NCBI GenBank assembly: GCA_963832155.1
Contig: CAWHTB010000002.1
Coordinates: 1,024,908 to 1,088,907 of the forward strand
Length of the DNA stretch: 64,000 nucleotides
Origin: an uncultured Actinomycetes bacterium
GTDB lineage: Bacteria > Actinomycetota > Thermoleophilia > Solirubrobacterales > 70-9
Direction of reading: 5' to 3'
Position 1 is the first letter of the stretch, and the number at the start of each line of letters is the position of its first letter. The notes beneath the pieces were generated by a model that was not told the DNA's origin, did no database searches, and was given only the letters and a program-made list of their open reading frames with translations. Below, in pieces: positions 5,576-17,547 of the stretch. The position numbers and the translations under genes are program-made.

Positions 5576-6505
5576 TCAGGCTGCGGGCCGAAGCCGTCGC
5601 CCTCGCCTGTCGATCACCGCCCCCCACTGCGAGTCGTCGATCCGGGCCGGGGAGGTGGTGGCGAGGAAGTCCTGCAGCACGCCGCCGAGCCCGTCCGGGT
5701 CTTCGAGGTTGGGGAAGTGGGCGGCGCGCGGGAGCACCTCAAAGCGGCAGTTTGGGATCGCCTGCTGTGCCTGCAGCCCGTGGGCGAGCGGGATCGTCCG
5801 GTCGCGCTCGCCCCACACGATCAGGGTCGGCATGTCGCCGAGCAGGTAGAGGCGGTCCCGGGCGCTGACCCGCTGGCCACGGGCATCGATCACCGAGCGC
5901 AGGGTCTCCAGGAAGGCTCGCCGCGAGCCGGGCGCCTGCAGCGGCGCCAGCGCTCGCGCCACCGCCTGCAGGTAGACGCCGGTCGAGCTGCCGCGGCTGC
6001 GAAGGCCGGCGCCGGTGGCGACCAGGGCGCGGAGGGCCCCCGGGTGGGCCACCAGCCGCAGCAGCGCGGCCGAGCCGGGGAGGGTGGCGGCGCGCAGGAG
6101 CGGGCTGACCTCGTCGCCAAGGCCGCCGCTGGAGATCAGTACAAGGCGCTCGGTGCGTTGGGGGAACTGGTAGAAGAACTGCATCGCGACCCCGCCGCCG
6201 AGCGAGTGGCCGACGAGCGTCGCCCGCTCGACCCCGATCGCCGTGAGCAGGTCGCGGATGCTCGCCGCGTGGGCGCCGAGCGAGTAGTCGCCCCGGGGCG
6301 TGGCGGAGTCGCCGTGGCCGATCAGGTCCGGCGCGATCACCCGGTGGCTGTCGGCGAGGCGGGTCGCAACTGCCTCCCAGTGTCGGGAGGAGTTGACCAT
6401 CCCGTGGACCAGGACGACGGTCGGGCCGCTGCCGGCCACCCGGTAGACCGCCCGGTGGCCGTGCAGCTCGACCTCATGTGCAGCGAAGGCGCCGCCAGGG
6501 TCCAT
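5576..6505 (-). CDS. alpha/beta hydrolase
   Basis: 309 aa; HG oxyanion motif (VVLVHGM) and nucleophile elbow GHSLGG. Confidence 0.85.
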   Translation of the reverse strand: MDPGGAFAAHEVELHGHRAVYRVAGSGPTVVLVHGMVNSSRHWEAVATRLADSHRVIAPDLIGHGDSATPRGDYSLGAHAASIRDLLTAIGVERATLVGHSLGGGVAMQFFYQFPQRTERLVLISSGGLGDEVSPLLRAATLPGSAALLRLVAHPGALRALVATGAGLRSRGSSTGVYLQAVARALAPLQAPGSRRAFLETLRSVIDARGQRVSARDRLYLLGDMPTLIVWGERDRTIPLAHGLQAQQAIPNCRFEVLPRAAHFPNLEDPDGLGGVLQDFLATTSPARIDDSQWGAVIDRRGRRLRPAA

Positions 6506-6531
6506 GTCGAGACCCTAGCGGCGCGTGGCGG

Positions 6532-7194
6532 TCAGCCTTCCCAGACGACCGGTTCGTCGTAGTAGGGGGTGAGGTCCGATCCGTCGGTCGGCCCGGTGCC
6601 CCACTCGACCTTTTCGATCGAGCCGCCGCCCGGGACCAGGTAGGCGAGGCACCCTTCGAAGCTCTCGCCACTGGTGAACGGCCGCGGCATGTCGGTGTTT
6701 TCGCAGCGCTCGAAGTCGCCGATGAAGGTGACGTTGGACTGTTCCTGCCCGCGGTCGTCGATGGCGTCGAAGGCGATGTACGGTTCTTCATCCGGCGGCG
6801 GTTCGGTGCCGGAAAGCGCCTCGACCTTGAACTTCACGTAATAGGGGGTCGATTCCTCTTCTTCGGGTTCCAGTTCGATGTTGGCGAAGTCGTCGATCGA
6901 GCCTTTTTCGATTGCCTCGACCGTGACTTCGACGTCGATTCCCTCCTCCGGTTCAGTGGCGCTTTCTTCGCTGAACGGGACCCAGGCCAGGGTCGCTTCT
7001 TCGCCGACTTTGAGCTGCGTGCCGGGGGGCGTCAGCGCGCCACCCTGGCTGTTCGACGAGTCCGGGGTCTCGGCGGTCGTGGGCGTGGACGAGGTCTCCG
7101 ACGAGCTGTCGTCGGAGCCGCCGCAGGCGGCGAGTCCAAGGACGAGAGCAAGAGACGCCGCTGCGATCAGCGCGGCGATCCGGCTTGACTTCAT
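6532..7194 (-). CDS. lipoprotein of unknown function
   Basis: Signal peptide with lipobox LGLAAC-GGSD, followed by a Ser/Thr/Glu-rich linker; high GC3 coding frame. Confidence 0.7.
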   Translation of the reverse strand: MKSSRIAALIAAASLALVLGLAACGGSDDSSSETSSTPTTAETPDSSNSQGGALTPPGTQLKVGEEATLAWVPFSEESATEPEEGIDVEVTVEAIEKGSIDDFANIELEPEEEESTPYYVKFKVEALSGTEPPPDEEPYIAFDAIDDRGQEQSNVTFIGDFERCENTDMPRPFTSGESFEGCLAYLVPGGGSIEKVEWGTGPTDGSDLTPYYDEPVVWEG

Positions 7195-7305
7195 GCGTGC
7201 TTCTCCTAGCCGCCCGGACCGCGGGGGGACCGGGCACGTTTCTTTACAGCCGGCGGGCGCCGGGAGGGGCGCGGGACGCTACCAGACGGGGTCAACAGAC
7301 ATCCG

Positions 7306-7926
7306 ATGATTCAGGCCCAGGCGGTAGCCTCCACCGCCGTGTTCGATCCCCTTGCCGTCGCCTCCTCCAGCCTCATCCAGGTGGTCGGAGTGACCCGCGT
7401 CTACTGCTCCGAGTGCGATCCGGAACTGCCCTTCTGGCAGGAGGCGCTGCTCGCTTCGCTCGCCATCGCGATCGCGTCCGGGATCCTCTACCTGATCTTC
7501 CGGGTTGGACCGATCAGCCGGCGCATGCGCAACCTCCGGCTGGGGACCTGCTTCCTCTCGGTGCAGCGGGGCTGGGAGAAGGAAGATCCCGCCCAGTTCG
7601 CCCCTTTCGTCACCTACGAGCTCGGCGAACGGTTGCGTCGCCAGCTGGCGGAAATAGCCGCCGACGGCCGGGTGATCCACCACGAACGGCCCCGCCTCCG
7701 GAAGGTCCGCGTCGTCAGCGGCGGCGGGAAAAAGGACGACGAATGCGTCGCCAGGATCGAGTCCTCGGTCCGCCACTGGCTGGCCGACGCAACCAGCGGC
7801 GAGCTGGTCGGCGGCAGCAAAGAGGTCTCCCGTGACGAATCGCACTGGCGCTTCATCCGCGACCCCGCCACCGACTGGCTCGCCGCGGAGATCGGCGTGA
7901 CCCCGCCCGCCGTCGGGGCTCGGTAG
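7306..7926 (+). CDS. hypothetical protein with one predicted TM helix
   Basis: Strong G/C third-position bias in this frame; hydrophobic stretch ALLASLAIAIASGILYLIF. The overlapping minus-strand ORF 7279..8031 is Arg/Pro/Gly-rich shadow. The true start may be internal. Confidence 0.5.
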   Translation: MIQAQAVASTAVFDPLAVASSSLIQVVGVTRVYCSECDPELPFWQEALLASLAIAIASGILYLIFRVGPISRRMRNLRLGTCFLSVQRGWEKEDPAQFAPFVTYELGERLRRQLAEIAADGRVIHHERPRLRKVRVVSGGGKKDDECVARIESSVRHWLADATSGELVGGSKEVSRDESHWRFIRDPATDWLAAEIGVTPPAVGAR

Positions 7927-7943
7927 GGGCCAGTCGAGGCAGG

Positions 7944-8324
7944 TTAGGACTGAGGGCGCTCGGCGGCGCGCTGGCGCGCTTCGGTCTTCTGCTCGAGCGT
8001 CATCGCACCGGGGTGGCCGTCGCCGGGCCACGGAGTGAGAATCAGCAGCAGACGGGCAGCCGACTTCGCGACGACCGTGTGGCGCTCGCCGGGGTCGAAC
8101 TCGAAGAGATGGCCGGCGCTCGCCGGCACGCTCTCCCCGTCGGGGGTGGTGACGTCGATGTCACCCTCGATGACGAGCAGCCGCGCCCGCTCGTGCACCT
8201 CGTGCTCCTGCAGTTCCTCCCCCGCCGGGAGGTGCAGCACGATCGTGCGTGCGTCCTCGGCCGAGGCGAGGATCTGCGGTTCGTGCGGCTCCGCCTCCAC
8301 GGTCTTCAGGTCCCAGCTCTGCAT
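7944..8324 (-). CDS. cupin domain protein
   Basis: Start set at internal ATG (MQSWDL), leaving a 26-bp gap to the upstream DedA gene; cupin-like HxH...E / GD...P.G..H pattern (LQEHEVHERARLLVIEGD...PGERHTV). Confidence 0.7.
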   Translation of the reverse strand: MQSWDLKTVEAEPHEPQILASAEDARTIVLHLPAGEELQEHEVHERARLLVIEGDIDVTTPDGESVPASAGHLFEFDPGERHTVVAKSAARLLLILTPWPGDGHPGAMTLEQKTEARQRAAERPQS

Positions 8325-8350
8325 CGTGGCCTCTTGTTTTATCAGGACCG

Positions 8351-8971
8351 CTAGGGCGCGATCCTGTCGCCGAAGATGTCTTTGCCTCGACGGCGCTGCA
8401 AGCGGCGCCATGCTTCGACTGAGAGCGTGACGAGGCCGGCGACGCCGAGCGCGATCAGCAGCGGCAGCCAGATGTTGTCTTCAAAGGTGGCGCCCCCCAG
8501 GTAGCCGAGCATCGAGATGTAGAAGGCCCACAGCACCGCGGCTACCGCATCGGCGAGGAGGAAGCGGCGGTAGGGCATCTTCAGCGTGCCGGCGGCGATC
8601 GTGGTCGCGGTGCGACCCGCGGGTATGAACCGGCCGATGGCGATCAGGGCGACCCCGCGTCTGTGGATCGCCGTTTTCGCCCACTCGAATCGCGCCCGCG
8701 CCTTCTCCCCCCGGAACAGGCGATTGGCGACCGGTTGTCCGACCTTGCGCCCGAGCCAGTAGGCGAGGTTGTCGGCAAGGAAGGCACCGAGCGCTGCCGC
8801 GGGCACGATCCCGGCGATCAGCAGCCCGCCGTCGGCGGCGATCACCGCGGCCGCGATCACGATCGTCTCCGACGGCACCAGGGGGAAGAAGACGTCGGTC
8901 GCCGCCGCGCCGAAAACCACCAGGTAAGTGATCGGGTTGTTCGAGACCTCACTCGTCAGCCACTCGAACAA
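8351..8971 (-). CDS. DedA family membrane protein
   Basis: 206 aa, multi-TM; DedA/SNARE-associated signature FFPLVPSETIVIAAAV and GRFIPAGRT. Confidence 0.85.
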   Translation of the reverse strand: MFEWLTSEVSNNPITYLVVFGAAATDVFFPLVPSETIVIAAAVIAADGGLLIAGIVPAAALGAFLADNLAYWLGRKVGQPVANRLFRGEKARARFEWAKTAIHRRGVALIAIGRFIPAGRTATTIAAGTLKMPYRRFLLADAVAAVLWAFYISMLGYLGGATFEDNIWLPLLIALGVAGLVTLSVEAWRRLQRRRGKDIFGDRIAP

Positions 8972-9087
8972 GACCGGCCTCCGCGGATGTCGGGCAGGGG
9001 GGAGATGCCCACCCAGGTACCCGCTTCGGGCGCAAAGCTGCGCAGGACGTCTAGATGCTCATGGGAACGCGCACTGGAGTGCTACTG

Positions 9088-10032
9088 CTATCCGGCCTTG
9101 ACAGTCGTTTCCCTGGCAGGATCGTTGCTGGTCACCTCGGCGGTTTGCACCTCCAGGGGCGCAGTGTCCGACCCGACCTCGGTCCGGCGCAGCCGCTTGC
9201 CGCTCGAGCTTGAGACCCGGTTCAGCCGCTCGCCGCGTGGTTTCGGGGCCCCAAGTGCCTGCGTGCGCTCGATCCGGTGGAGGAACGCCTCCCAATCGGC
9301 CTCCCGGGTACGGCGAGCTTCGAGGTGCTGTCGTTGGGTGCGGCGGTCCCAGAGGTCGAGGCCAACTCGCCAGCCTGAATAGGCAAGGCCGAGGGCAAGC
9401 ACAATCGCGGCCAGCACCAGCAGGGCATTGGAGTCCGAGCCCCCCCGCTCGCTGGAGTTCGCGGGCACAGCAGCGGGCGGCGGAGACGCCGATCTCTCGT
9501 TGCCGCCCTGAGGCGCTTTGGGCAGAGCCACCGCGGCGGCGGTGCCGACGTCCACGTTGGCGGCCTTGGCGATCGGGGCGGGCGGCGCCACCGGCCGGGT
9601 GGCGCTCTCCGCTTGACGCGGGCTCGCGGCATCCTCGAAGGTCGGCGGCGCCGACGATTCCAGTTCGTCGTAGCCAGCTGAACCGGCGGTGTAGGAGGGT
9701 TCTTCGCCGGTCGACGTGACCTGTTCCGAATCGCCGCTGTCGTTGCCGTTGCTGCCGGCGCCGCTTCCGAGCGAACTTCCACGCCGGATTGAGGAAGTCC
9801 CGTCGCTGGAAGTTCCCGTGCCAGGACCCACCGGGGTCCAGCCCGTCGAACCCGGTGAGGAGGCGGCGGGTTCCGCCGGGGCGCTAGGAGATTCGGTCGC
9901 GGTTTCTCCCGGCGGTGGAGCGCCGCCGGATTCTTCTCCGGTCGTCACCGCCCCCGCGGGCGACGCGGCCACCAGGGTCATCGCTGCAACGACTATCGCA
10001 AGCCCAATAGAGCGATGCAGGCGCAGCCTCAT
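9088..10032 (-). CDS. Pro/Ser/Gly-rich secreted protein with C-proximal TM helix
   Basis: ATG at 10032 gives signal-like MRLRLHRSIGLAIVVAAMTLVAASPAGA; long low-complexity region; TM ALLVLAAIVLALGLAYSGW; basic cytoplasmic tail. Divergent from the Ig-repeat gene. Confidence 0.6.
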   Translation of the reverse strand: MRLRLHRSIGLAIVVAAMTLVAASPAGAVTTGEESGGAPPPGETATESPSAPAEPAASSPGSTGWTPVGPGTGTSSDGTSSIRRGSSLGSGAGSNGNDSGDSEQVTSTGEEPSYTAGSAGYDELESSAPPTFEDAASPRQAESATRPVAPPAPIAKAANVDVGTAAAVALPKAPQGGNERSASPPPAAVPANSSERGGSDSNALLVLAAIVLALGLAYSGWRVGLDLWDRRTQRQHLEARRTREADWEAFLHRIERTQALGAPKPRGERLNRVSSSSGKRLRRTEVGSDTAPLEVQTAEVTSNDPARETTVKAG

Positions 10033-10184: not shown

Positions 10185-13100
10185 ATGAGAATTTTTCACC
10201 GGACCGCGCTTGGAGGGTCGGCAGGCGCCGGCATCGCGACGTGCCTGGGGTTGGTGCTCGCAGCCACCTCCTCAGCCGCCACGCCGACGCTGGGCGTTAC
10301 GGCCACCGACGCGATCGTCGGGCAGGCGATTCATGCAACCGCTCAACTCTCCGAAAGCACCGATGCCTCCGGGGAGATCTCCTTCGAAGTGTTCGGACCG
10401 GGCGACCCGGGCGACCCGGACTGCTCCGGGCCTGACTTGACGCCGGCTCCGGCGTCGGCGTCAGTGGACGGCGACGGGGAATATTCCTCCGGAAACTTCA
10501 CCCCGCCCGTCGCCGGGAGCTATTTCTGGAGCGCCCATTACCCGGGTGACGTGGACAACGATCCAGCCGAGTCCATCTGCTCAGCGGTTTCGACCGTCGA
10601 TAAGGCTTCACCCTCGCTTGCAGGGTCCGCGACCTCCGGGGTCACCGTCGGCTCGACGATCACCGACGAAGCGACGCTCACCGGAGGTTTTGAAGCCGGC
10701 GGCCAGCTCGTCTTCCGCGCCTTCGGGCCAAACAACCAAGCCTGCGCGGGCGCCCCCAAATACCAAGATACGGTCGCTGTCGACGGCAATGGCTCCTACT
10801 CACCATCTGGATTCGCCCCGGTGCCAGCGGGGCTCTACCGCTGGACCGTCGAATACGAAGGTGACCAAAACAACAAACCGGCCGACTTGGGCTGCGGGGC
10901 TTCCAACCAGTCCTCAGCCGTGAACAGAGCTTCACCGATCCTCTCAGGGTTGGCAACCTCCGTCGTCACCGTCGGCTCTCCGATTCACGACGAGGTGACC
11001 TTCACCGGAGCCTTCTCTCCCACCGGCGAAGTGACTTTCAAGGTCTTCGGGCCGACTGACACCGACTGCTCAGTGCCGTTGGCAACGGATGCCGTGCCCG
11101 TACAGGGTGGCCAGGCTACCTCTGCGAATTTCCTTGCTCAGCAGGCCGGGGAATTCCGCTGGACCGCGGATTACCCCGGGGACGCAAACAACGAACCGGC
11201 CAGCCTGCCTTGCAACGCCACCAACCAGACCTCGACCGTCAACAAAGACTCACCGAACCTTTCAGGGTCGGCGACCTCCACCGTCATGGTCGGTTCGACG
11301 ATCACCGACGAAGCGACGCTCTCCGGCGGCTTTCAGGCCGGCGGTCAGCTCGTCTTCCGCGCCTTCGGCCCCGGCAATGAGACCTGCACGGGCACCCCCC
11401 AACACGAGGAGGCGGTCGCCGTCAACGGCAACGGCTCCTATTCGCCGGCCGGGTTTATCGCGGCACCGGCGGGGTCCTACCGCTGGACCGTCGCTTACGA
11501 AGGGGATGGCAACAACGAACCGGCCAGCCTCCCCTGCAACGCCGCCAACCAGACCTCGACCGTCAACAAAGACTCGCCGAACCTCTCGGGGGCGGCGACC
11601 TCCACCGTCACGGTCGGTTCGACGATCACCGACGAAGCGACCCTCACCGGCGGCTTTCAGCCCAGCGGTCAGCTCGTCTTCCGCGCCTTCGGCCCCGGCA
11701 ACGAGACCTGCATGGGCACCCCCCAATACCAGGAAGCTGTCGCCGTCAACGGCAACGGCTCCTATTCGCCGGCCGGGTTTGTCGCATCTCCCGCGGGGCT
11801 CTACCGCTGGACCGTCGAATACGGAGGCGACGCGAGCAACGAACCGGACAGCTTGGGCTGCAACGCCGCAGGCCAAAGCTCCACTGTCAACAAAGCCTCG
11901 CCGTCGCTCGCGGGGATCGCGAGCTCCGCCGTCGTCGGCTCGCCGATTCACGACGAAGTGACCCTCACCGGGGACTTCTCTCCCACCGGGGAAGTGACCT
12001 TTTCGGTCTATGGGCCGACGGATACCGGCTGTTCGACGCCGCTGGTAACGGGGTCCGTACCCATCCAGGGCAACCACGCCACTTCCGCGAACTTCCTCCC
12101 CCAGCAAGCCGGGGAATTCCGTTGGACCGCGGACTACCCGGGTGACGCGAACAACGAACCGGCCAGCCTCCCCTGCGGCGCCACCAACCAAACCTCGATC
12201 GCAAGCAAAGCCTCACCGAACCTCTCGGGGACGGCGACCTCTGCGATCACGGTCGGTGAAGAGATCACCGACAACGTCACTCTCACCGGCGGCTTTGAGG
12301 CCGGCGGTCAACTCACCTTCCGCGCCTTCGGCCCCAACGACCAAACCTGCGCGACCACTCCCAAATACGAAGATACGGTCACCGTCAACGGCGATGGCTC
12401 CTATTCCCCGTCCCCTCCTGAGTTCGTCCCGGCGCTGGCGGGGCTCTACCGCTGGACCGTGGAATACGGGGGCGACGCGAACAACGAACCGGCCAGCCTG
12501 CCATGCGGGACCACCAACCAGGCTTCGGCGGTCGGCACTGTTTCCGTGACCCTTTCAGCCAGCGCCACCAGCGCCACTGTCGGGGGCTCCGTAACCGCCA
12601 TGGCGTCGATCCAGGAAGGAGCGATTCCGGCCGGGCAGATCACCTTCAAAGCGTTCCCTCCGAGCGACGCGACTTGCTCGGGCGCCGCCGCCTTCAGCTC
12701 GACCGTCGGCGTTTCGGGGCTCGGCTCCTACCGTTCGGCCGCATTCGTGCCTCCTCGGGTCGGCATCTTCCGGTGGACCGTCGGGTACTCGGGCGACCCG
12801 AACCACGCCCCAGCGGCCGTCGGTTGCGGCGGAGCGACGTCCGGTGTCTCCCAGGCAAGGCCCACGATCGCCACCGGCGCCGTCGGGCAGCGATTCGTCG
12901 TCGGTGCCCCGTTCCGTGCCGCTGCGACGCTGCAGGGGGGTTTCGCGCCCGCCGGCACGGTCACCTTTCGGATCTACGGCCCGGGCGCGGGGGACTGTGT
13001 CAAACCGCTCTCGGTCAACACCGTCGCCATCGCCGGGAACGGCGCCTTCCTCTCGGATCCGTTCGTTCCGCAGCGCCCCGGTCGCTACCGGTTCGTGGCG

Positions 13101-13490
13101 AGCTATTCGGGCGACGCGTCGAACCAAGGGGCCGCCGAGGCGTGTGGCTTGGCCGGCCAAATAGCCCAGGCGCAAAAGCGAACGCCGAAAGTGAAGCCGC
13201 GCGCGCGTTTGAGCGGCAGGCAGATCTCGATACGCGCGCGCCTCTCGGGCACGATGTCTCCCTCCGGGGCAATCACCTTTCGCCTCTACGGGCCGGGCAA
13301 CAAGCGGTGCAAAGCTGCCCCCGCCTTCAGCGGCAGTATCGGGGTGAAGTCGAACGGCAGCTACTTGCTGGCCAAGTACCTCGCAACCCAACGAGGCATC
13401 TACCGCCTCAGCGTCGGCTACTCCGGGGACCTGCGCAACCGGCGAGACCCCGGCAGCTGTCGCGCCGCACAGCTTCTCCAGGTCGACTGA
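10185..13490 (+). CDS. secreted Ig-like domain repeat protein (10 tandem modules)
   Basis: Signal peptide, then ten modules of roughly 105-109 aa, each with two conserved Cys and a Y/F-RWT-x-Y-x-GD-x-N motif reminiscent of bacterial Ig-like (Big) repeats. Confidence 0.85.
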   Translation: MRIFHRTALGGSAGAGIATCLGLVLAATSSAATPTLGVTATDAIVGQAIHATAQLSESTDASGEISFEVFGPGDPGDPDCSGPDLTPAPASASVDGDGEYSSGNFTPPVAGSYFWSAHYPGDVDNDPAESICSAVSTVDKASPSLAGSATSGVTVGSTITDEATLTGGFEAGGQLVFRAFGPNNQACAGAPKYQDTVAVDGNGSYSPSGFAPVPAGLYRWTVEYEGDQNNKPADLGCGASNQSSAVNRASPILSGLATSVVTVGSPIHDEVTFTGAFSPTGEVTFKVFGPTDTDCSVPLATDAVPVQGGQATSANFLAQQAGEFRWTADYPGDANNEPASLPCNATNQTSTVNKDSPNLSGSATSTVMVGSTITDEATLSGGFQAGGQLVFRAFGPGNETCTGTPQHEEAVAVNGNGSYSPAGFIAAPAGSYRWTVAYEGDGNNEPASLPCNAANQTSTVNKDSPNLSGAATSTVTVGSTITDEATLTGGFQPSGQLVFRAFGPGNETCMGTPQYQEAVAVNGNGSYSPAGFVASPAGLYRWTVEYGGDASNEPDSLGCNAAGQSSTVNKASPSLAGIASSAVVGSPIHDEVTLTGDFSPTGEVTFSVYGPTDTGCSTPLVTGSVPIQGNHATSANFLPQQAGEFRWTADYPGDANNEPASLPCGATNQTSIASKASPNLSGTATSAITVGEEITDNVTLTGGFEAGGQLTFRAFGPNDQTCATTPKYEDTVTVNGDGSYSPSPPEFVPALAGLYRWTVEYGGDANNEPASLPCGTTNQASAVGTVSVTLSASATSATVGGSVTAMASIQEGAIPAGQITFKAFPPSDATCSGAAAFSSTVGVSGLGSYRSAAFVPPRVGIFRWTVGYSGDPNHAPAAVGCGGATSGVSQARPTIATGAVGQRFVVGAPFRAAATLQGGFAPAGTVTFRIYGPGAGDCVKPLSVNTVAIAGNGAFLSDPFVPQRPGRYRFVASYSGDASNQGAAEACGLAGQIAQAQKRTPKVKPRARLSGRQISIRARLSGTMSPSGAITFRLYGPGNKRCKAAPAFSGSIGVKSNGSYLLAKYLATQRGIYRLSVGYSGDLRNRRDPGSCRAAQLLQVD
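11247..11894 (+). repeat. two adjacent near-identical 324-bp coding repeat units (modules 4 and 5 of the Ig-repeat gene)
   Basis: Units start at 11247 and 11571 (period exactly 324 bp). Both begin GACTC.CCGAACCT and share long identical runs (e.g. ggtcggttcgacgatcaccgacgaagcgac, cagctcgtcttccgcgccttcggccccggcaa). Confidence 0.85.
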
Positions 13491-13530: not shown

Positions 13531-13940
13531 TCAGCCGCGAAGTGCTCGCCAGACAACCCCTGGCCGTCTAGCGACCTTCGGTCCGAGGATCAGGCCGAAT
13601 AGCGTCAGGGCCAGCCAGGGTCGAAGGTGAGGGCTGATCTTGCGGATACGGCCATCGGGTTCCAACTCGAAGACCATCGCGTCGGTCATATGCACAGGCC
13701 CGAGCCGTGCATGCCCCAGAGCGACCCAATGCTCGTTTTCGCCGAGCGTTCGCGTCCAGCGCAGCCCCTTCAGGCTCCCGTACACAGCGCTGAGCAGAAC
13801 CTCGACGTCGTCTCGCCCCGAAAGACCATTCGGCCCGAGATCGGGGAGACGACCTCGATATCCGCGGTGAGCGAACTCATGATCCCGTCGATGTCTCCAG
13901 CCTCGGAGGCAGACAGATAACGCTCCACCGACTCGTCCAT
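13531..13940 (-). pseudogene. NTF2/SnoaL-like protein gene interrupted by a 1-nt frameshift
   Basis: ATG at 13940 reads MDESVERYLSASEAGDIDGIMSSLTADIEVVSPISGRMVFRG. The sequence then continues in another frame as RDDVEVLLSAVYGSLKGLRW...; the switch lies in the C-run at 13816-13819. Confidence 0.6.
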
Positions 13941-14072
13941 GGGATAACCATATGGCGGCTGAGATCCGAAGAGCTTCGGGTGCTGCAGTCGTGCGGGTCA
14001 TCCGATTGTTCATCCTTGATGGCGAGCGTTCGGTACTGGCTCGCCGGAGGGGACCTCACGTAGGAACTAGAT

Positions 14073-14092
14073 ATTAGCTAATCCCTAATAAA
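14073..14092. promoter_or_regulatory. AT-rich motif ATTAGCTAATCCCTAATAAA (contains perfect palindrome ATTAGCTAAT)
   Basis: Read directly; lies just 3' of the two-gene cassette. 16/20 identical to 15555-15574 in the cassette promoter region. Confidence 0.4.
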
Positions 14093-14101
14093 TCTCAGAT
14101 A

Positions 14102-14842
14102 TCAGGAAGCAGCTAATAGCAGCAGGGCGATCACCGCGGCGATGATGACGCTGGTGAACGTGCCAACGAGGAAGTACTCGGTGAGCCCATCGATTTTGGC
14201 TCCATTGTTTTCTCGGCTGATCTCGGGGAAGCGGAGCAGTCCCTTCGCTGCGATCACGAAGCCGGCTCCGGCGAGGTCGCCCGAGACGATCGAAGCGGCG
14301 ACGATCAAGCGCTCCATCGGGCCAAGGAACCGCCCCCCTTTGAGTGGTTCCGGCTTCTCGTCTACCTCGGTGTCTTCCTTGGTCGCTGCGAGCACGAGCA
14401 CGACGATCCGGTTACTCGTCGCGAGCAGGAAGAGAAATGCCCCGACGCCAAGGACGAACTGATCCACGGGCACCAAGCCCGACGCGGCGACGGAGAGGGG
14501 GAGGCTTTCGTACCAGTCCTGCAGCGAGCCCCCGACCGGACTCGCCGATCCACTCGCGGCGACCGTGCCCACGAGCGCGACGGTCGGCAGCACGAGCGCC
14601 CAGACATAGTGTCGCTGGGTTCCGAATTTCCAGTCGACCAGCAGCCAGGCGACCGCGGGCAGGGCGACGATCGTCGTCAGCGCGACCGAGCACCAGTCCA
14701 TGCCGCTCAGTCGCGCCATGCCCCAGGTTGCGACGAGGGTGCCGCCGATCGCGATCGAGGTTCGGAGCCGCACCTTCTCTGGTACCAGCCTCAGCAGGTC
14801 ACCCACCCCGAAGGCGAGCAGGGCGAGAGCCGGCAGGATCAC
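14102..14842 (-). CDS. multi-pass membrane protein (about 7 TM), DUF3307/SatE-like
   Basis: 246 aa; GTG start overlaps the upstream stop (GTGA). Repeated hydrophobic helices; GRFLGPMERLIV...IAAKGLLRF resembles the DUF3307 signature as recalled from memory. Confidence 0.65.
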   Translation of the reverse strand: MILPALALLAFGVGDLLRLVPEKVRLRTSIAIGGTLVATWGMARLSGMDWCSVALTTIVALPAVAWLLVDWKFGTQRHYVWALVLPTVALVGTVAASGSASPVGGSLQDWYESLPLSVAASGLVPVDQFVLGVGAFLFLLATSNRIVVLVLAATKEDTEVDEKPEPLKGGRFLGPMERLIVAASIVSGDLAGAGFVIAAKGLLRFPEISRENNGAKIDGLTEYFLVGTFTSVIIAAVIALLLLAAS

Positions 14843-15522
14843 CAGGAGCCACCTTCGAGGCGGGCCTGGGCCATGTGGACGGCGTTGGCGCCGCTGCGCG
14901 CGAGGTTCTGGGAGATCGCGCCCTGGGTCTTTCCCTCAGCTGCGGCTATCCGCGACTGCGACCACCCTCGCATCAAGCCGTAGAGGCGCCGGCGGCTCTG
15001 GGTGTTCATCCGGTCGATCATTGCGTCGCGGCAGAACAGGAAGGCATTCAGGGAGGCGGCCTCCGCAAGTGCGGCATTTCCGTCGCTCGGGTCCGGCTCG
15101 AAATAGGTGCGGACGAAGGAGGTCGAGTTGGCGTCGGCCATCTCCTTCGCGACATCGATCCCACGCCGCGCCGTCCACCAGCCGGGGCCGTCCTGGGAAA
15201 CGGGCTTGCGCGCCGCGAAGACGGTGATCGGTCCGTGGCCGAGCCCGAACCTCGTGTCGACTTCAGCGCGTTCGAAGAACACCAACCGGATGACCAGGCT
15301 CGCCCGAACCGCTTCCGCGACGCTCACGAACCCCCCTTGGAACTCGTCCCCGATCGTCGGTTCGAGGCGCAGCGCCGGCCTCAGCTCTTTGTTCATCTGC
15401 CGAAGCATCGCCCCGAGCTGCTTCTGGAGGGCGGGTCGATCGTCGGCATGTCGTGACCCGACGATGTCGCCGATCAGGGTGTAGACGGGTCCGTGTAGAC
15501 GGAGGATCTCTGGTTTCGGCAT
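14839..15522 (-). CDS. SatD-like protein: cyclase-fold-like N-domain fused to C-terminal HTH
   Basis: 227 aa. IGDIVGSR, TIGDEFQGGF, RFGLGHGPI and WWTARRGIDVAKE parallel the class III cyclase motifs of the cyclase at 58079..61126. C-terminal WSQSRIAAAEGKTQGAISQNLARS is HTH-like. Confidence 0.65.
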   Translation of the reverse strand: MPKPEILRLHGPVYTLIGDIVGSRHADDRPALQKQLGAMLRQMNKELRPALRLEPTIGDEFQGGFVSVAEAVRASLVIRLVFFERAEVDTRFGLGHGPITVFAARKPVSQDGPGWWTARRGIDVAKEMADANSTSFVRTYFEPDPSDGNAALAEAASLNAFLFCRDAMIDRMNTQSRRRLYGLMRGWSQSRIAAAEGKTQGAISQNLARSGANAVHMAQARLEGGSW

Positions 15523-15574
15523 AGCTATTAGAGGATAGCTAATAAAGACAGGAAATTAGCTATTTCCTAATAGG
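15522..15574. promoter_or_regulatory. AT-rich region with three TAGCTA cores upstream of the SatD-like gene
   Basis: TAGCTA at 15522, 15536 and 15557; CTATTAG (15525) and CTAATAG (15567) form an inverted pair; strongly AT-rich in a high-GC genome. Confidence 0.4.
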
Positions 15575-15641
15575 CACAAAAAGCTGCAGATGGATGGTTG
15601 GAGGCTCACCAGGGGTCGGCCCTGATCCTGTTGTCTACTCA

Positions 15642-15715
15642 TCGGGGCGCCCGGATTTGAACCGGGGACCTCACCGACCCGAACGGTGCGCGCTACCAGG
15701 CTGCGCCACGCCCCG
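15642..15715 (-). tRNA. tRNA-Pro (anticodon CGG)
   Basis: Reverse complement CGGGGCGTGGCGCAGCCTGGTAGCGCGCACCGTTCGGGTCGGTGAGGTCCCCGGTTCAAATCCGGGCGCCCCGA folds as a cloverleaf: 7-bp acceptor stem, anticodon loop TTCGGGT, T-loop GGTTCAAATCC. No encoded CCA. Confidence 0.9.
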
Positions 15716-15805
15716 AGAGCGGGGATTATCCCAGAGCGAGGCCGGGACGCGGTGCCGGGACCTCTCCCGCTACTTTTCGCCTGGCCCCGGTTCCCCAAGG
15801 AGACC

Positions 15806-16900
15806 ATGACCCGCAAGCTGATTCCGTTCCTGTTCCTCGTGCTGCTCGCGCTCGCGCCGGCGACCGCGCGAGCGGGGCTTCCCCCTGGGTTCATCGGCAT
15901 CTCGCCGCAGAACGCGTCCAACGAGAAGGACTTCGAGCTGATGCGCCGGGCCGGGATCGAGAGCGTGCGGGTGCAGCTCAACTGGGGCGGCGTCGAGAGC
16001 GAGAGCCCGCTGCTGGTCGAACCGAACTGGAGCGGCTTCGACCGCGAGGTCGAGCTGGCCGCCGAAGCCGGGCTCCGGGTGATGCCGTTCGTCCTCGGCT
16101 CGCCCGACTGGGTGACGCCGGAGCCGCTCGAGTTGCCGGTGCGCAGCTCCTGGCAGCGCTGGGCCTGGGCCTCCTTCCTGCGCTCCGCGGCCGATCGCTA
16201 TGGCCCGCAGGGCATCTTCTGGGAAGAGCACCCTGAACTTCGCTTCTTGCCGATCCGGAAATGGGAGATCTGGAACGAGCAGAACATCGTCAGCTTCACG
16301 CCCCGGCCTGATCCGGTCAGGTTCGCGACGCTGATCCGGTCCGCCGGCCGGGCGCTGCATGCGGTCGACCCCGGCGCCCAGGTGATCCTCGGTGGCCTCT
16401 TCGGGCGACCGCTCCAGATCCCGCCGAACATCGCCTCGGGGGATTTCCTCAATCGCTTTTACAAGGCCGGGAACGTGAAGCCGTACTTCGACGGCGTCGC
16501 CCTGCACCCCTATGTCGCCGATGCGCTGGCGATGGGAGCTCAGATGGAGAACCTGCGGCGAATCATGCGCCTGCACGGCGACGCCCGCACGGCGACCTAC
16601 GTGACCGAGCTGGGATGGGGCTCCCGCGGCGGCCCGACGCGGTGGGAGCGTGGCCTCTTCGGGCAGGCGGAACAGCTCTCCCGCGCCTTCGAGTTGCTTT
16701 CGGACAACCGGTTGCGCTGGCGGGTTCGCGGCGCCTGGTGGTTCACCTGGAGCGACGAAGGCGGCGCCTGCGCGTTCTGCGGCTCGGCCGGGCTGCTGAC
16801 CGCCGCCCGCGAGGCGAAGCCCTCCTGGTACCGGTTCAACGAATGGACCGGCGGCAATCCCGAAGCGGCCGAGCGCTCGCTGATCGGTGACGCTGGCTAG
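15806..16900 (+). CDS. secreted clan GH-A (GH5-like) glycoside hydrolase
   Basis: AAGGAG RBS before the ATG at 15806; signal peptide [23 protein letters not shown]; acid/base motif WEIWNEQN and nucleophile-like VTELGW. Confidence 0.75.
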
Positions 16901-16947
16901 AGGCTAGGCTCCGCAGGAACCTTCCACACGAGCTAAGGAGATCTTCG

Positions 16948-17547
16948 ATGGCTTTCTCGGTCCCGGACCTGCCGTACGCCTACGACGCGCTCGAGCCTCA
17001 TATCGATGAGGAAACGATGCGCATCCACCACGACAAGCACCACCAGGCCTACGTCGACAAAGCCAACGGTGCCCTTGAGGGAACCGAGTGGGCTGACCGC
17101 GAGGTCGAGGACGTGCTTCGCAACCTCTCCAGCCTTCCTGGCGACAAGCAGGGGCCGGTCCGCAACAACGCCGGCGGCCACTACAACCACTCGCTGTTCT
17201 GGGAGATGATGAGCCCCGACGGCGGCGGTGAGCCCGAGGGCGAGCTGGCCTCCGCGATCACCGACACCTTCGGCTCCTTCGACGCCTTCAAGGAAGAGTT
17301 CAAAAACGCCGGGATCGCCCGCTTCGGCTCTGGCTGGGCCTGGCTGGTCAAGGACTCCTCCGGCCTGGCGGTGGTCTCGACCCCGAACCAGGACTCGCCG
17401 ATCTCAGACGGCAGCGTGGCGCTACTCGGGTGCGACGTCTGGGAGCACGCCTACTACCTCAAGTACCAGAACAAGCGCCCGGACTACCTCGACGCCTTCT
17501 GGAACGTCGTCAACTGGAGCTACGTGGCGGAGAGGTTCGCCGAGTAG
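16948..17547 (+). CDS. sodA: Fe/Mn superoxide dismutase
   Basis: [25 protein letters not shown] and [18 protein letters not shown] signatures. Metal specificity not determined. Confidence 0.95.

Follow-up and report, generated by a model that had tools for sequence, protein, structure and literature searches.

The closest described relatives of the locus analysed here are found in the sat operon of Streptococcus mutans, which encodes SatD (PF16264) and SatE (PF11750, DUF3307). In the literature that we searched, no biochemical function or mechanism was found published for the SatD or DUF3307 families, and what is otherwise said of SatD is limited to its name, "secretion and acid tolerance", and to the annotation "DNA-binding protein". 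In Streptococcus pyogenes, satD is present in 71% of genomes yet scores as essential by transposon sequencing (Tn-seq) in every strain tested (PMC11323703). Here we describe a divergent variant of the SatD/SatE (DUF3307) pair, carried on a 64,000-nucleotide (nt) stretch of contig CAWHTB010000002.1 from an uncultured Actinomycetes bacterium; "the window" refers to this whole stretch. The cassette lies on the minus strand between two AT-rich stretches that carry operator-like palindromes. We consider it on balance probable that SatD acts as a dimer to repress its own operon, takes its input through a nucleotide-binding domain and thereby gates the dose of the membrane protein encoded with it. 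As the SatD family has already been catalogued, the locus is not categorically new. The two genes are:

14839..15522, minus strand: satD, 227 amino acids (aa), with a predicted palm domain at about residues 10-145 and a C-terminal five-helix domain containing a putative helix-turn-helix (HTH) at about residues 189-210 (TQGAISQNLARSG)
14102..14842, minus strand: the satE-like partner gene, 246 aa, a polytopic membrane protein, with its GTG start within the GTGA overlap

Both open reading frames (ORFs) were confirmed where a first-pass annotation, made by reading the DNA alone, had placed them, together with the GTGA tetranucleotide at 14839-14842 in which the TGA stop of satD overlaps the GTG start of its partner. 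The same annotation had proposed the SatD family for the first protein, and this was borne out by a PF16264 match of 53.7 bits against a gathering cut-off of 29. In the window protein the SatD model aligns to residues 15-134 only. Archaeal and Arthrobacter homologues align to it through position 196-197 of 211, so that their HTH is covered. PF16264 was present in all listed homologues (n = 120) except P0094, a 180-aa fragment. Unlike the S. mutans sat operon, the window has no ffh/ylxM neighbourhood.

A locus scan using one genome per species found at least 552 loci that encode a SatD relative, and the best 80 were analysed. All 80 came from Actinomycetota (Solirubrobacterales, Nocardioides, Mycobacterium, Myceligenerans, Blastococcus and others). 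The partner gene lay directly downstream of satD in 77 of the 80, and in at least two of the remaining three (L007 and L029) the sequence ends within about 750 nt of satD. A 4-nt NTGA overlap joined the two genes in 62 of the 77 loci, so the tight coupling of satD to a membrane partner that had been read from the window alone is supported. The same arrangement was seen on a haloarchaeal plasmid, where the annotated SatD and DUF3307 genes are adjacent, in that order, and share 4 nt as do the two genes of the window. Clustering of neighbours found no accompanying third gene family in more than 19 of 81 loci, the common neighbours being lineage-specific; one cluster, of ORFs antisense to the cassette, was set aside as shadow ORFs arising from high GC. 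SatD and its partner thus form a conserved, self-contained two-gene module. Two plasmid copies were examined as loci in their own right. On the Halorientalis plasmid pHOS300 (L081, 2965..4382), the SatD-DUF3307 pair has its own upstream palindrome, GTTCGG-N8-CCGAAC. On the Arthrobacter plasmid pZXY21 (L082, 3004..4514), a ATTAGCTAAT site lies downstream of the partner gene, and transposase genes are nearby.

Four candidate operators were recognised in the window, two before satD and two at the end of the partner gene:

15555..15571, minus strand: U1, distal upstream candidate operator, a perfect 17-bp palindrome ATTAG-N7-CTAAT that starts 49 nt before the satD start codon
15527..15543, minus strand: U2, proximal upstream candidate operator, a perfect palindrome ATTAG-CTATCCT-CTAAT that starts 21 nt before the start codon
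15532..15537, minus strand: -10-like hexamer TATCCT, in the spacer of U2 and 9 nt before the ATG
14101..14117, minus strand: D1, candidate operator ATTAG-CTGCTTC-CTGAT with 1 mismatch, covering the last five codons and the stop of the partner gene (LLAAS*)
14073..14089, minus strand: D2, candidate operator, a perfect palindrome ATTAG-GGATTAG-CTAAT, 12 nt past the stop of the partner gene and containing the 10-bp palindrome ATTAGCTAAT

Within each pair (U1/U2 and D1/D2) the spacing is 28 nt. In the whole 64 kb, TTAGCTA was matched four times against 0.48 expected, and ATTAG-N7-CTAAT with at most one mismatch was matched five times against 0.05 expected; all of these matches fall in the two flanks of the cassette. 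The AT-rich TAGCTA motifs that had first been remarked on as bracketing the cassette are therefore confirmed there, and they prove to be conserved palindromic predicted operators. Across the loci, sites occur at about -18 to -22 and -43 to -49 relative to the satD start and at -16 and +12/13 relative to the partner stop, with 28-29 bp between the members of a pair. The -16 position recurs in at least eight other loci (L001, L002, L003, L008, L011, L015, L046 and L050). As D1 lies over the last codons and stop of the partner gene, the same bases there are under both coding and binding-site constraint.

Enrichment was assessed by counting perfect AT-rich 5-N7-5 inverted repeats in 76 loci against 300 shuffles of their own flanks. 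Upstream of satD (-60..+3) there were 57 perfect palindromes against 2.8 ± 1.5 in shuffled flanks (maximum 8 in 300 shuffles), an enrichment of about 20-fold; around the stop of the partner gene there were 27 against 0.8 ± 1.0, about 34-fold. The half-site differs by lineage (ATTAG, ATAAG, ATCAG, TTCAG and TGAAG), and it was identical at both ends of the operon in 11 of the 15 loci with perfect sites at both. It also tracks the residue that follows the invariant S-Q of the recognition helix of SatD: SQN or SQS occurs with AT[TAC]AG, SQQ with TTCAG and SQR with TGAAG. Such covariation of half-site and recognition helix is the expected signature of a cognate protein-DNA pair, and it suggests that SatD itself binds these sequences.

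We then considered where the upstream sites lie relative to the start of transcription. A -10 hexamer just before a start codon that lacks a Shine-Dalgarno (SD) sequence is the standard layout of leaderless actinobacterial genes. Among perfect sites, TANNNT lay wholly inside the 7-nt spacer in 20 of 33 proximal sites but in none of the distal (n = 15) or downstream (n = 33) ones, and in 16 of the 20 it ended 6-7 nt before the satD start codon. An SD-like tetramer was found before satD in 4 of 81 loci and before the partner start in 47 of 78. This points to a proximal candidate operator that overlies the -10 element, while the distal one, whose centre is near -41, would lie over the -35 region. 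No promoter-like spacer is present in the downstream pair, and we therefore read D1 and D2 as probable auxiliary operators for looping or insulation, by analogy with the lambda CI OL-OR system and the auxiliary operators of lac, gal and deo.

Support for a DNA-binding domain at the C-terminus of SatD, which had been proposed from the window sequence, came from several weak matches and from the five-helix domain in the structural model. The C-terminus gave a sub-threshold match to the sigma-70 extracytoplasmic function (ECF) model TIGR02937 (E 0.046, 13.4 bits against a cut-off of 42.9), and SatD homologues gave sub-threshold matches to Sigma70_r4_2 and other HTH models. KorA/TrfB was the best PDB sequence match of the HTH, at a non-significant E of 0.29 over 28 residues (TRGAVSQ in SatD, TQGAISQ in KorA). 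The KorA operator is GTTTAGCTAAAC (PMC2680271), and it has the core TTAGCTAA in common with the ATTAGCTAAT sequence of the window (14072..14081; 15527..15571). We treat the likeness to KorA as a lead only.

To examine the N-terminal part of SatD, an AlphaFold2 model was built from 46 homologues. It had a predicted local distance difference test score (pLDDT) of 93.4 and a predicted template modelling score (pTM) of 0.90, with a beta-alpha-beta-beta-alpha-beta core followed by the five helices. A Foldseek search of the model against the PDB gave 74 matches at E ≤ 1e-3, and 50 of the 50 listed were class III cyclase catalytic domains, whether adenylyl, guanylyl or uridylyl. The top match was the cyclase homology domain of Mycobacterium tuberculosis Rv1900c (E 3.8e-6, probability 1.0, 21% identity over 126 columns, target-normalised TM score 0.56), with the Pycsar cyclic UMP (cUMP) synthases 7r65 and 8jsz further down the list. 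A cyclase-type palm had been anticipated from the sequence, and the class III cyclase catalytic domains were the only folds among the PDB matches listed. We conclude that SatD is a member of the SatD family with a predicted palm fold of class III cyclase type.

Residue conservation was measured in 80 SatD sequences, comprising 78 genome loci, the Arthrobacter plasmid and the haloarchaeal plasmid. Twelve positions were invariant in all 80 (D19, S23, G58, D59, E60, Q62, R91, G93, G95, G97, G112 and R119), and D111 was kept in 79. Conservation of Asp19 and Asp59, the two residues singled out beforehand as likely metal ligands, was thus complete, the archaeal sequence included. The motif GDEFQ is invariant, as is QDGPGWW, which is specific to the SatD family.

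At the sequence level, SatD is less easily placed with the cyclases. PF00211 gave no match to SatD at E ≤ 1 in the Pfam search, and a PDB sequence search with the SatD profile recovered no cyclase, only weak HTH matches. It had been claimed that SatD matches, motif for motif, the class III cyclase domain encoded elsewhere in the window (58079..61126), but hhalign of the SatD profile against that domain, as a single sequence or as a 53-sequence profile, gave a probability of 0.2-0.3%, which is not significant. The register of this non-significant alignment is nevertheless the one that had been suggested at the outset, with D19 opposite the first metal Asp, D59 opposite its second and R91-x-G-x-G-x-G opposite the RxGxxxG of the cyclase. 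In the same alignment there is a 4-residue deletion at the position of the base-specifying Lys and the transition-state Asn was not located, with R119 invariant nearby. Compared with class III cyclases (PF00211; Rv1900c, bPAC and CyaB), SatD has the same fold and, in that non-significant alignment, acidic residues at the two metal positions and an RxGxGxG strand in place of RxGxxxG, but no significant sequence or profile match; its domain is shorter (about 135 residues), the Lys hairpin is apparently deleted, the catalytic Asn/Arg pair could not be placed, and it has the invariant QDGPGWW of its own. SatD shares its fold with these enzymes, but membership of their sequence family is not demonstrable.

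The cyclase at 58079..61126 is itself encoded on the minus strand, as a 1015-aa protein with Guanylate_cyc, AAA_16 and TPR_12 domains, and belongs to the large class of STAND-type cyclase regulators. Many cyclases carry a catalytic Asn at a site where its motif GHTVGLAQRME has Gly. In Rv0386-type mycobacterial regulators, which join a cyclase domain to an HTH in proteins of at least about 1,000 residues, the cyclase is a genuine PF00211 domain and a STAND ATPase separates it from the HTH; the 58079..61126 gene shows the cyclase, AAA_16 and TPR part of such an architecture. SatD resembles them in having a cyclase-fold domain and an HTH in one polypeptide, but at 227 aa it is a minimal fusion, its palm domain is divergent and it has a membrane partner of its own.

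For the membrane partner, the label DUF3307 proved to be half right. Its C-terminal module is homologous to that of a DUF3307 protein: residues 131-243 align to residues 147-249 of the haloarchaeal protein by hhalign (probability 99.1%, E 4.4e-19, 35% identity over 103 columns). In the haloarchaeal protein, the Pfam model itself, which describes an N-terminal membrane domain with an H..DF..Q motif, spans residues 15-115, and this N-terminal domain could not be detected in the window family, PF11750 giving no match at E ≤ 1 for the partner or for 43 relatives at 28-37% identity. The N-terminal half was thus unmatched by the DUF3307 model in 44 of 44 family members. Precomputed Pfam domains were present on none of 120 closer homologues, and a Pfam search of 44 diverse members gave scattered single weak matches only, with no domain that binds cyclic nucleoside monophosphates (cNMP). 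On the strength of the C-terminal alignment, we regard the partner as SatE-like, sharing the C-terminal module of SatE/DUF3307 proteins, with an N-terminal membrane half that has diverged too far for the Pfam model to match it. An exhaustive profile search showed the family to be large, with 5,021 clusters at 50% identity with E ≤ 1e-3, of which 999 had E ≤ 1e-10.

Invariant residues of the partner are found in the C-terminal module (N144, G169-G170-R171, G174, E177-R178, K200, R204, E207, E222-Y223, G227 and S231), and the most conserved stretch reads GGRxLGPxER...AAKGLLRFxE...TEYF. Foldseek found no match to its AlphaFold2 model (pLDDT 82.3, pTM 0.82) in either of two databases, the lowest E being 0.92 for the PDB and 0.59 for BFVD. 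The protein had been described as having about seven hydrophobic helices. This stands as a count of hydrophobic segments, but positive charge in the family is concentrated in the loops at 19-30, 155-174 and 203-218, a distribution that favours six spans and a cytoplasmic hairpin over seven spans. The conserved C-terminal module is probably cytoplasmic.

Taken together, these observations suggest the following scheme. SatD would bind the 17-bp palindromes (ATTAG-N7-CTAAT in the lineage of the window), and would do so as a dimer, given that class III cyclase domains occur as dimers and that a palindrome of 17 bp suits an HTH protein with two subunits. U1 and U2 would lie over its own promoter, U2 enclosing the -10 element of a transcript with little or no leader, so that protein bound at the proximal site would block RNA polymerase. 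Binding would shut off both satD and the translationally coupled membrane-protein gene, and SatD would thereby set the dose of the membrane protein. For the 3' pair D1/D2 the probable role is to strengthen repression through looping, or else to shield the operon from transcription that enters from outside. Signal input and dimerisation are likely functions of the palm domain, and binding or turnover of a nucleotide there would alter DNA binding and release expression of the membrane protein. In this scheme the effect of binding would be repression, the ligand presumably a nucleotide, and the membrane protein one that would need tight dosing. An accessory but essential satD, as in S. pyogenes, fits by analogy what would be expected of a repressor that restrains a harmful gene. 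The first-pass annotation had proposed a nucleotide-making or nucleotide-sensing regulator controlling a membrane protein, and the finding of its TAGCTA sites as conserved palindromic predicted operators lends support to that proposal.

The proposed logic resembles that of TetR/TetA, where a dimeric HTH repressor acts on promoter-overlapping palindromes of a membrane-protein gene and is released by a ligand. Here, however, the regulator and membrane-protein genes are co-transcribed and translationally coupled rather than divergent. Paired operators at two distant places are also a feature of lambda CI at OL-OR, and looping at the sat locus is proposed by analogy with it; the sensor domain of SatD has no homology to TetR or CI. 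With KorA the likeness lies in the operator GTTTAGCTAAAC with its TTAGCTAA core, the HTH similarity being below significance. Four elements were not found described in the literature searched, namely a partner subfamily outside Pfam coverage, a cyclase-fold-plus-HTH reading of SatD backed by structural search, operator brackets at both ends of the operon and a leaderless promoter-occlusion geometry.

Several points weigh against the autorepressor scheme. Of the 76 loci, 44 have perfect palindromes upstream and 19-26 have them downstream, the latter figure varying with the span that was scanned, so the downstream sites are not universal, and Mycobacterium loci mostly have the proximal site alone. 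The correlation between recognition helix and half-site is confounded by phylogeny, and another factor could bind the palindromes. The -10-like hexamer of the window stands 9 nt from the ATG instead of 6-7 nt, which makes a leader of 2-4 nt possible, and no E. coli-type sigma-70 promoter scored at the locus. What points to nucleotide binding by SatD is the fold together with three or four residues, since profile comparison with cyclases gave nothing significant, the hairpin with the purine-specifying Lys appears to be deleted and the Asn was not located. The strict invariance of the active-site residues suggests real catalysis, which a pure sensor model underplays. Finally, the S. pyogenes SatD is a distant relative whose essentiality could have other causes.

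We also considered a stronger version, which we regard as possible but doubtful: that SatD represents a new class of transcription factor, whose minimal cyclase-type palm domain would be catalytic, producing or using up a nucleotide on DNA, and which would loop and seal its operon by means of the operator pairs at the two ends. The partner, with no solved relative in fold, would be a nucleotide-gated channel or enzyme, lethal when derepressed. If true, it would explain the "essential accessory" satD of S. pyogenes and would assign a role to a module that ranges from archaea to Firmicutes and Actinobacteria. Even on the more modest autorepressor reading, a palm domain acting as the input of a DNA-binding switch would be a new type of sensor among bacterial transcription factors, and could account for satD being accessory but essential in S. 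pyogenes. SatD and its partner form a large, ancient module in bacteria and archaea that has been catalogued by name alone, and the locus offers a testable system, with defined candidate operators, a predicted promoter occlusion, four or five residues that are candidates for catalysis or ligand binding, and a conserved module of the membrane protein that is probably cytoplasmic.

In one alternative the two proteins form a second-messenger pair. SatD would be an active cyclase or other nucleotidyl transferase whose product directly gates or activates the partner through its cytoplasmic module, and the HTH would serve only autoregulation or localisation. All 80 sequences, from bacteria and archaea alike, keep the metal Asp pair, the phosphate Arg and the Gly loop, which is stricter than is usual for a pure sensor; the fold matches active cyclases, Pycsar cUMP synthases included; the most conserved part of the partner is probably cytoplasmic; and strict 1:1 coupling of the genes would suit a stoichiometric pair. 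However, the partner has no known nucleotide-binding domain in Pfam and its fold matches nothing solved, while SatD seems to lack the hairpin with the base-specifying Lys, its transition-state Asn could not be located and the Pfam cyclase model finds nothing in it at E ≤ 1. The operator pairs are explained no better than by the autorepressor scheme. We consider a second-messenger pair rather unlikely, although it is compatible with autorepression and could be added to it.

Addiction, in the manner of a toxin-antitoxin system, is a further alternative: an overmade membrane protein would be harmful, the SatD repressor would act as the antidote, and loss of SatD would kill the cell. The accessory yet essential satD of S. 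pyogenes (PMC11323703) would be explained in this way, candidate operators over both the promoter and the 3' end suggest unusually tight control, the module is self-contained in variable contexts, and a regulator-first order with a 4-nt overlap is the usual antitoxin-toxin layout. Against this, neither protein was matched by PADLOC, and the module is very rare on plasmids and absent from phage records, unlike most addiction modules, with its conserved position beside a superoxide dismutase gene in Solirubrobacterales (see below) pointing to vertical descent. Typical type II pairs consist of much smaller, less well conserved proteins than these two, and the partner has invariant polar residues of an enzyme-like or transporter-like kind. 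Addiction as such is unlikely, and the idea sharpens the autorepressor scheme more than it competes with it.

A cyclase-fold protein beside a membrane protein also invites comparison with anti-phage systems, in which an infection-sensing cyclase makes a product that switches on an effector able to disrupt the membrane. This comparison was made in the first-pass annotation, with the pyrimidine cyclase system for antiphage resistance (Pycsar; a PycC cyclase with a transmembrane or TIR effector) and the cyclic-oligonucleotide-based antiphage signalling system (CBASS), and it did not hold up. The class III-like cyclase fold next to a membrane protein is shared with Pycsar, and the Pycsar cyclases 7r65 and 8jsz are among the Foldseek matches. 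PADLOC, though, gave no match for SatD or its partner; the partner has no cNMP-binding or other effector domain in Pfam; and the SatD fold is the class III cyclase palm, not the Pol-beta-like nucleotidyltransferase fold of the cGAS/DncV-like nucleotidyltransferases (CD-NTases) of CBASS. An HTH on the cyclase-fold protein, with operators on its own promoter, is foreign to both systems. A survey of the neighbourhood, where a defence island might have been expected, found housekeeping-type neighbours, without defence genes or a conserved third gene. PHROGs gave no match for SatD, and SatD relatives were found on 3 of 72,556 plasmids and 0 of 50,697 phage records, which gives no support to an association with mobile elements; they occur in at least 552 species representatives, with lineage-level synteny. 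The defence reading is thus largely refuted already and we hold it to be highly improbable, which removes a tempting mis-annotation: a cyclase-fold gene beside a membrane-protein gene is not necessarily a defence system.

Equally improbable is a sigma/anti-sigma-like pair, in which the region-4-like domain would recruit RNA polymerase to -35-like sites and the membrane partner would sequester SatD. The weak region-4 matches (TIGR02937 at E 0.046, Sigma70_r4_2 in homologues), the classic ECF layout of a co-transcribed, translationally coupled membrane partner and a distal site centred near -41 would all suit it. SatD differs from ECF sigma factors, however, in having no region 2, its N-terminal domain having the cyclase fold instead, and every region-4 match is below threshold. 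Symmetric 17-bp palindromes suit a dimeric repressor, not a sigma factor, and the proximal site covers the -10 region.

Turning to the surroundings of the cassette, the order along the minus strand of the window is tRNA-Pro(CGG), an AT-rich spacer, the 227-aa ORF, the 246-aa ORF and the second AT-rich stretch:

15641..15716, minus strand: tRNA-Pro(CGG), co-oriented upstream neighbour of satD, listed as context and not as a part of the module

The tRNA gene had been placed about 120 bp from the cassette, and the gap to satD was measured as 118 nt on the same strand. A tRNA gene lay within the fetched ±6 kb in 8 of 80 loci, at 500 nt or less in seven of these, so that association with tRNA genes is not a general trait of the module. 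Among the six closest relatives (L001-L006), five follow a tRNA-Pro gene, as does L039, and three anticodons are represented among them. A search of the intergenic regions against Rfam recovered the tRNA alone and no other known RNA element. A scan for E. coli-type promoters and terminators found no promoter, and no terminator after the partner gene, and is thus uninformative for a high-GC (guanine plus cytosine) actinobacterial lineage such as this. The cassette had been thought lower in GC than its surroundings. A low-GC island was rejected, because the GC of both coding sequences (0.66-0.69) equals that of neighbouring genes; the two short flanks alone are AT-rich, dipping to about 0.56-0.57.

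By Pfam scan, the neighbours of the cassette in the window are genes for an Fe/Mn superoxide dismutase (SOD), a protein with Big_3_5 Ig-like repeats, a glycosidase-like protein and a SnoaL-like fragment. In loci L005 and L006 the order is tRNA-Pro(CGG), satD, satE, the glycosidase-like gene and the SOD gene, all co-oriented (about 5800-9300), and relative to these the tRNA-satD-satE block of the window (14102..17547) is inverted in place with respect to the glycosidase-like and SOD genes. SOD lies directly upstream of satD in L011 and L013, and its adjacency recurs in Solirubrobacterales. The synteny kept in these four loci therefore indicates that the cassette has descended vertically, with rearrangement on a local scale.

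An exact 11-nt repeat, GTGAGGTCCCC (GGGGACCTCAC on the plus strand), occurs at 15664..15674 inside the tRNA-Pro gene and at 14049..14059 past the far flank. Integration targeted to the tRNA was rejected as its explanation, as the score of the repeat was reached by 12 of 500 shuffles and nothing similar was found in the six other tRNA-Pro-adjacent loci; no integration scar was seen. That the pair is a mobile two-gene cassette inserted beside tRNA-Pro, with the flanking repeats as recombination or transposition ends, is barely credible: the repeats do bracket exactly two genes, contexts vary across the phylum, several close relatives follow tRNA-Pro genes with different anticodons and the 11-nt match links tRNA-Pro to the far flank, but that match is weak, no integrase or transposase is present, tRNA genes are seldom nearby, the glycosidase-like/SOD synteny is kept with a local inversion only, the proximal repeat sits at a fixed distance and is integrated with promoter and start codon, the pair is rare on plasmids and phages, and neither precise empty sites with target duplications nor multiple identical copies per genome were seen among the loci examined.

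Three of the neighbouring genes merit brief description. Downstream of the cassette, an apparently frameshifted SnoaL-like (NTF2-fold) gene lies at 13531..14013 on the minus strand; its N-terminal piece, in the frame of an ORF at 13770..13940, matches SnoaL_2 weakly (E 0.0027), the remainder follows in the frame of the 160-aa ORF 13531..14013, and it could be a pseudogene or a sequencing error. On the plus strand, the longest glycosidase-like ORF (15686..16900) begins inside the opposite-strand tRNA-Pro gene, and the true start is probably the Met at about 15806, before a signal-peptide-like sequence; the sole Pfam match of its product is a weak one, to Glyco_hydro_14 (E 0.0047). Also on the plus strand, 10185..13490 encodes a highly repetitive surface protein of 1101 aa, with about ten near-identical Ig-like (Big_3_5) modules of about 100 aa each and a signal-peptide-like start.

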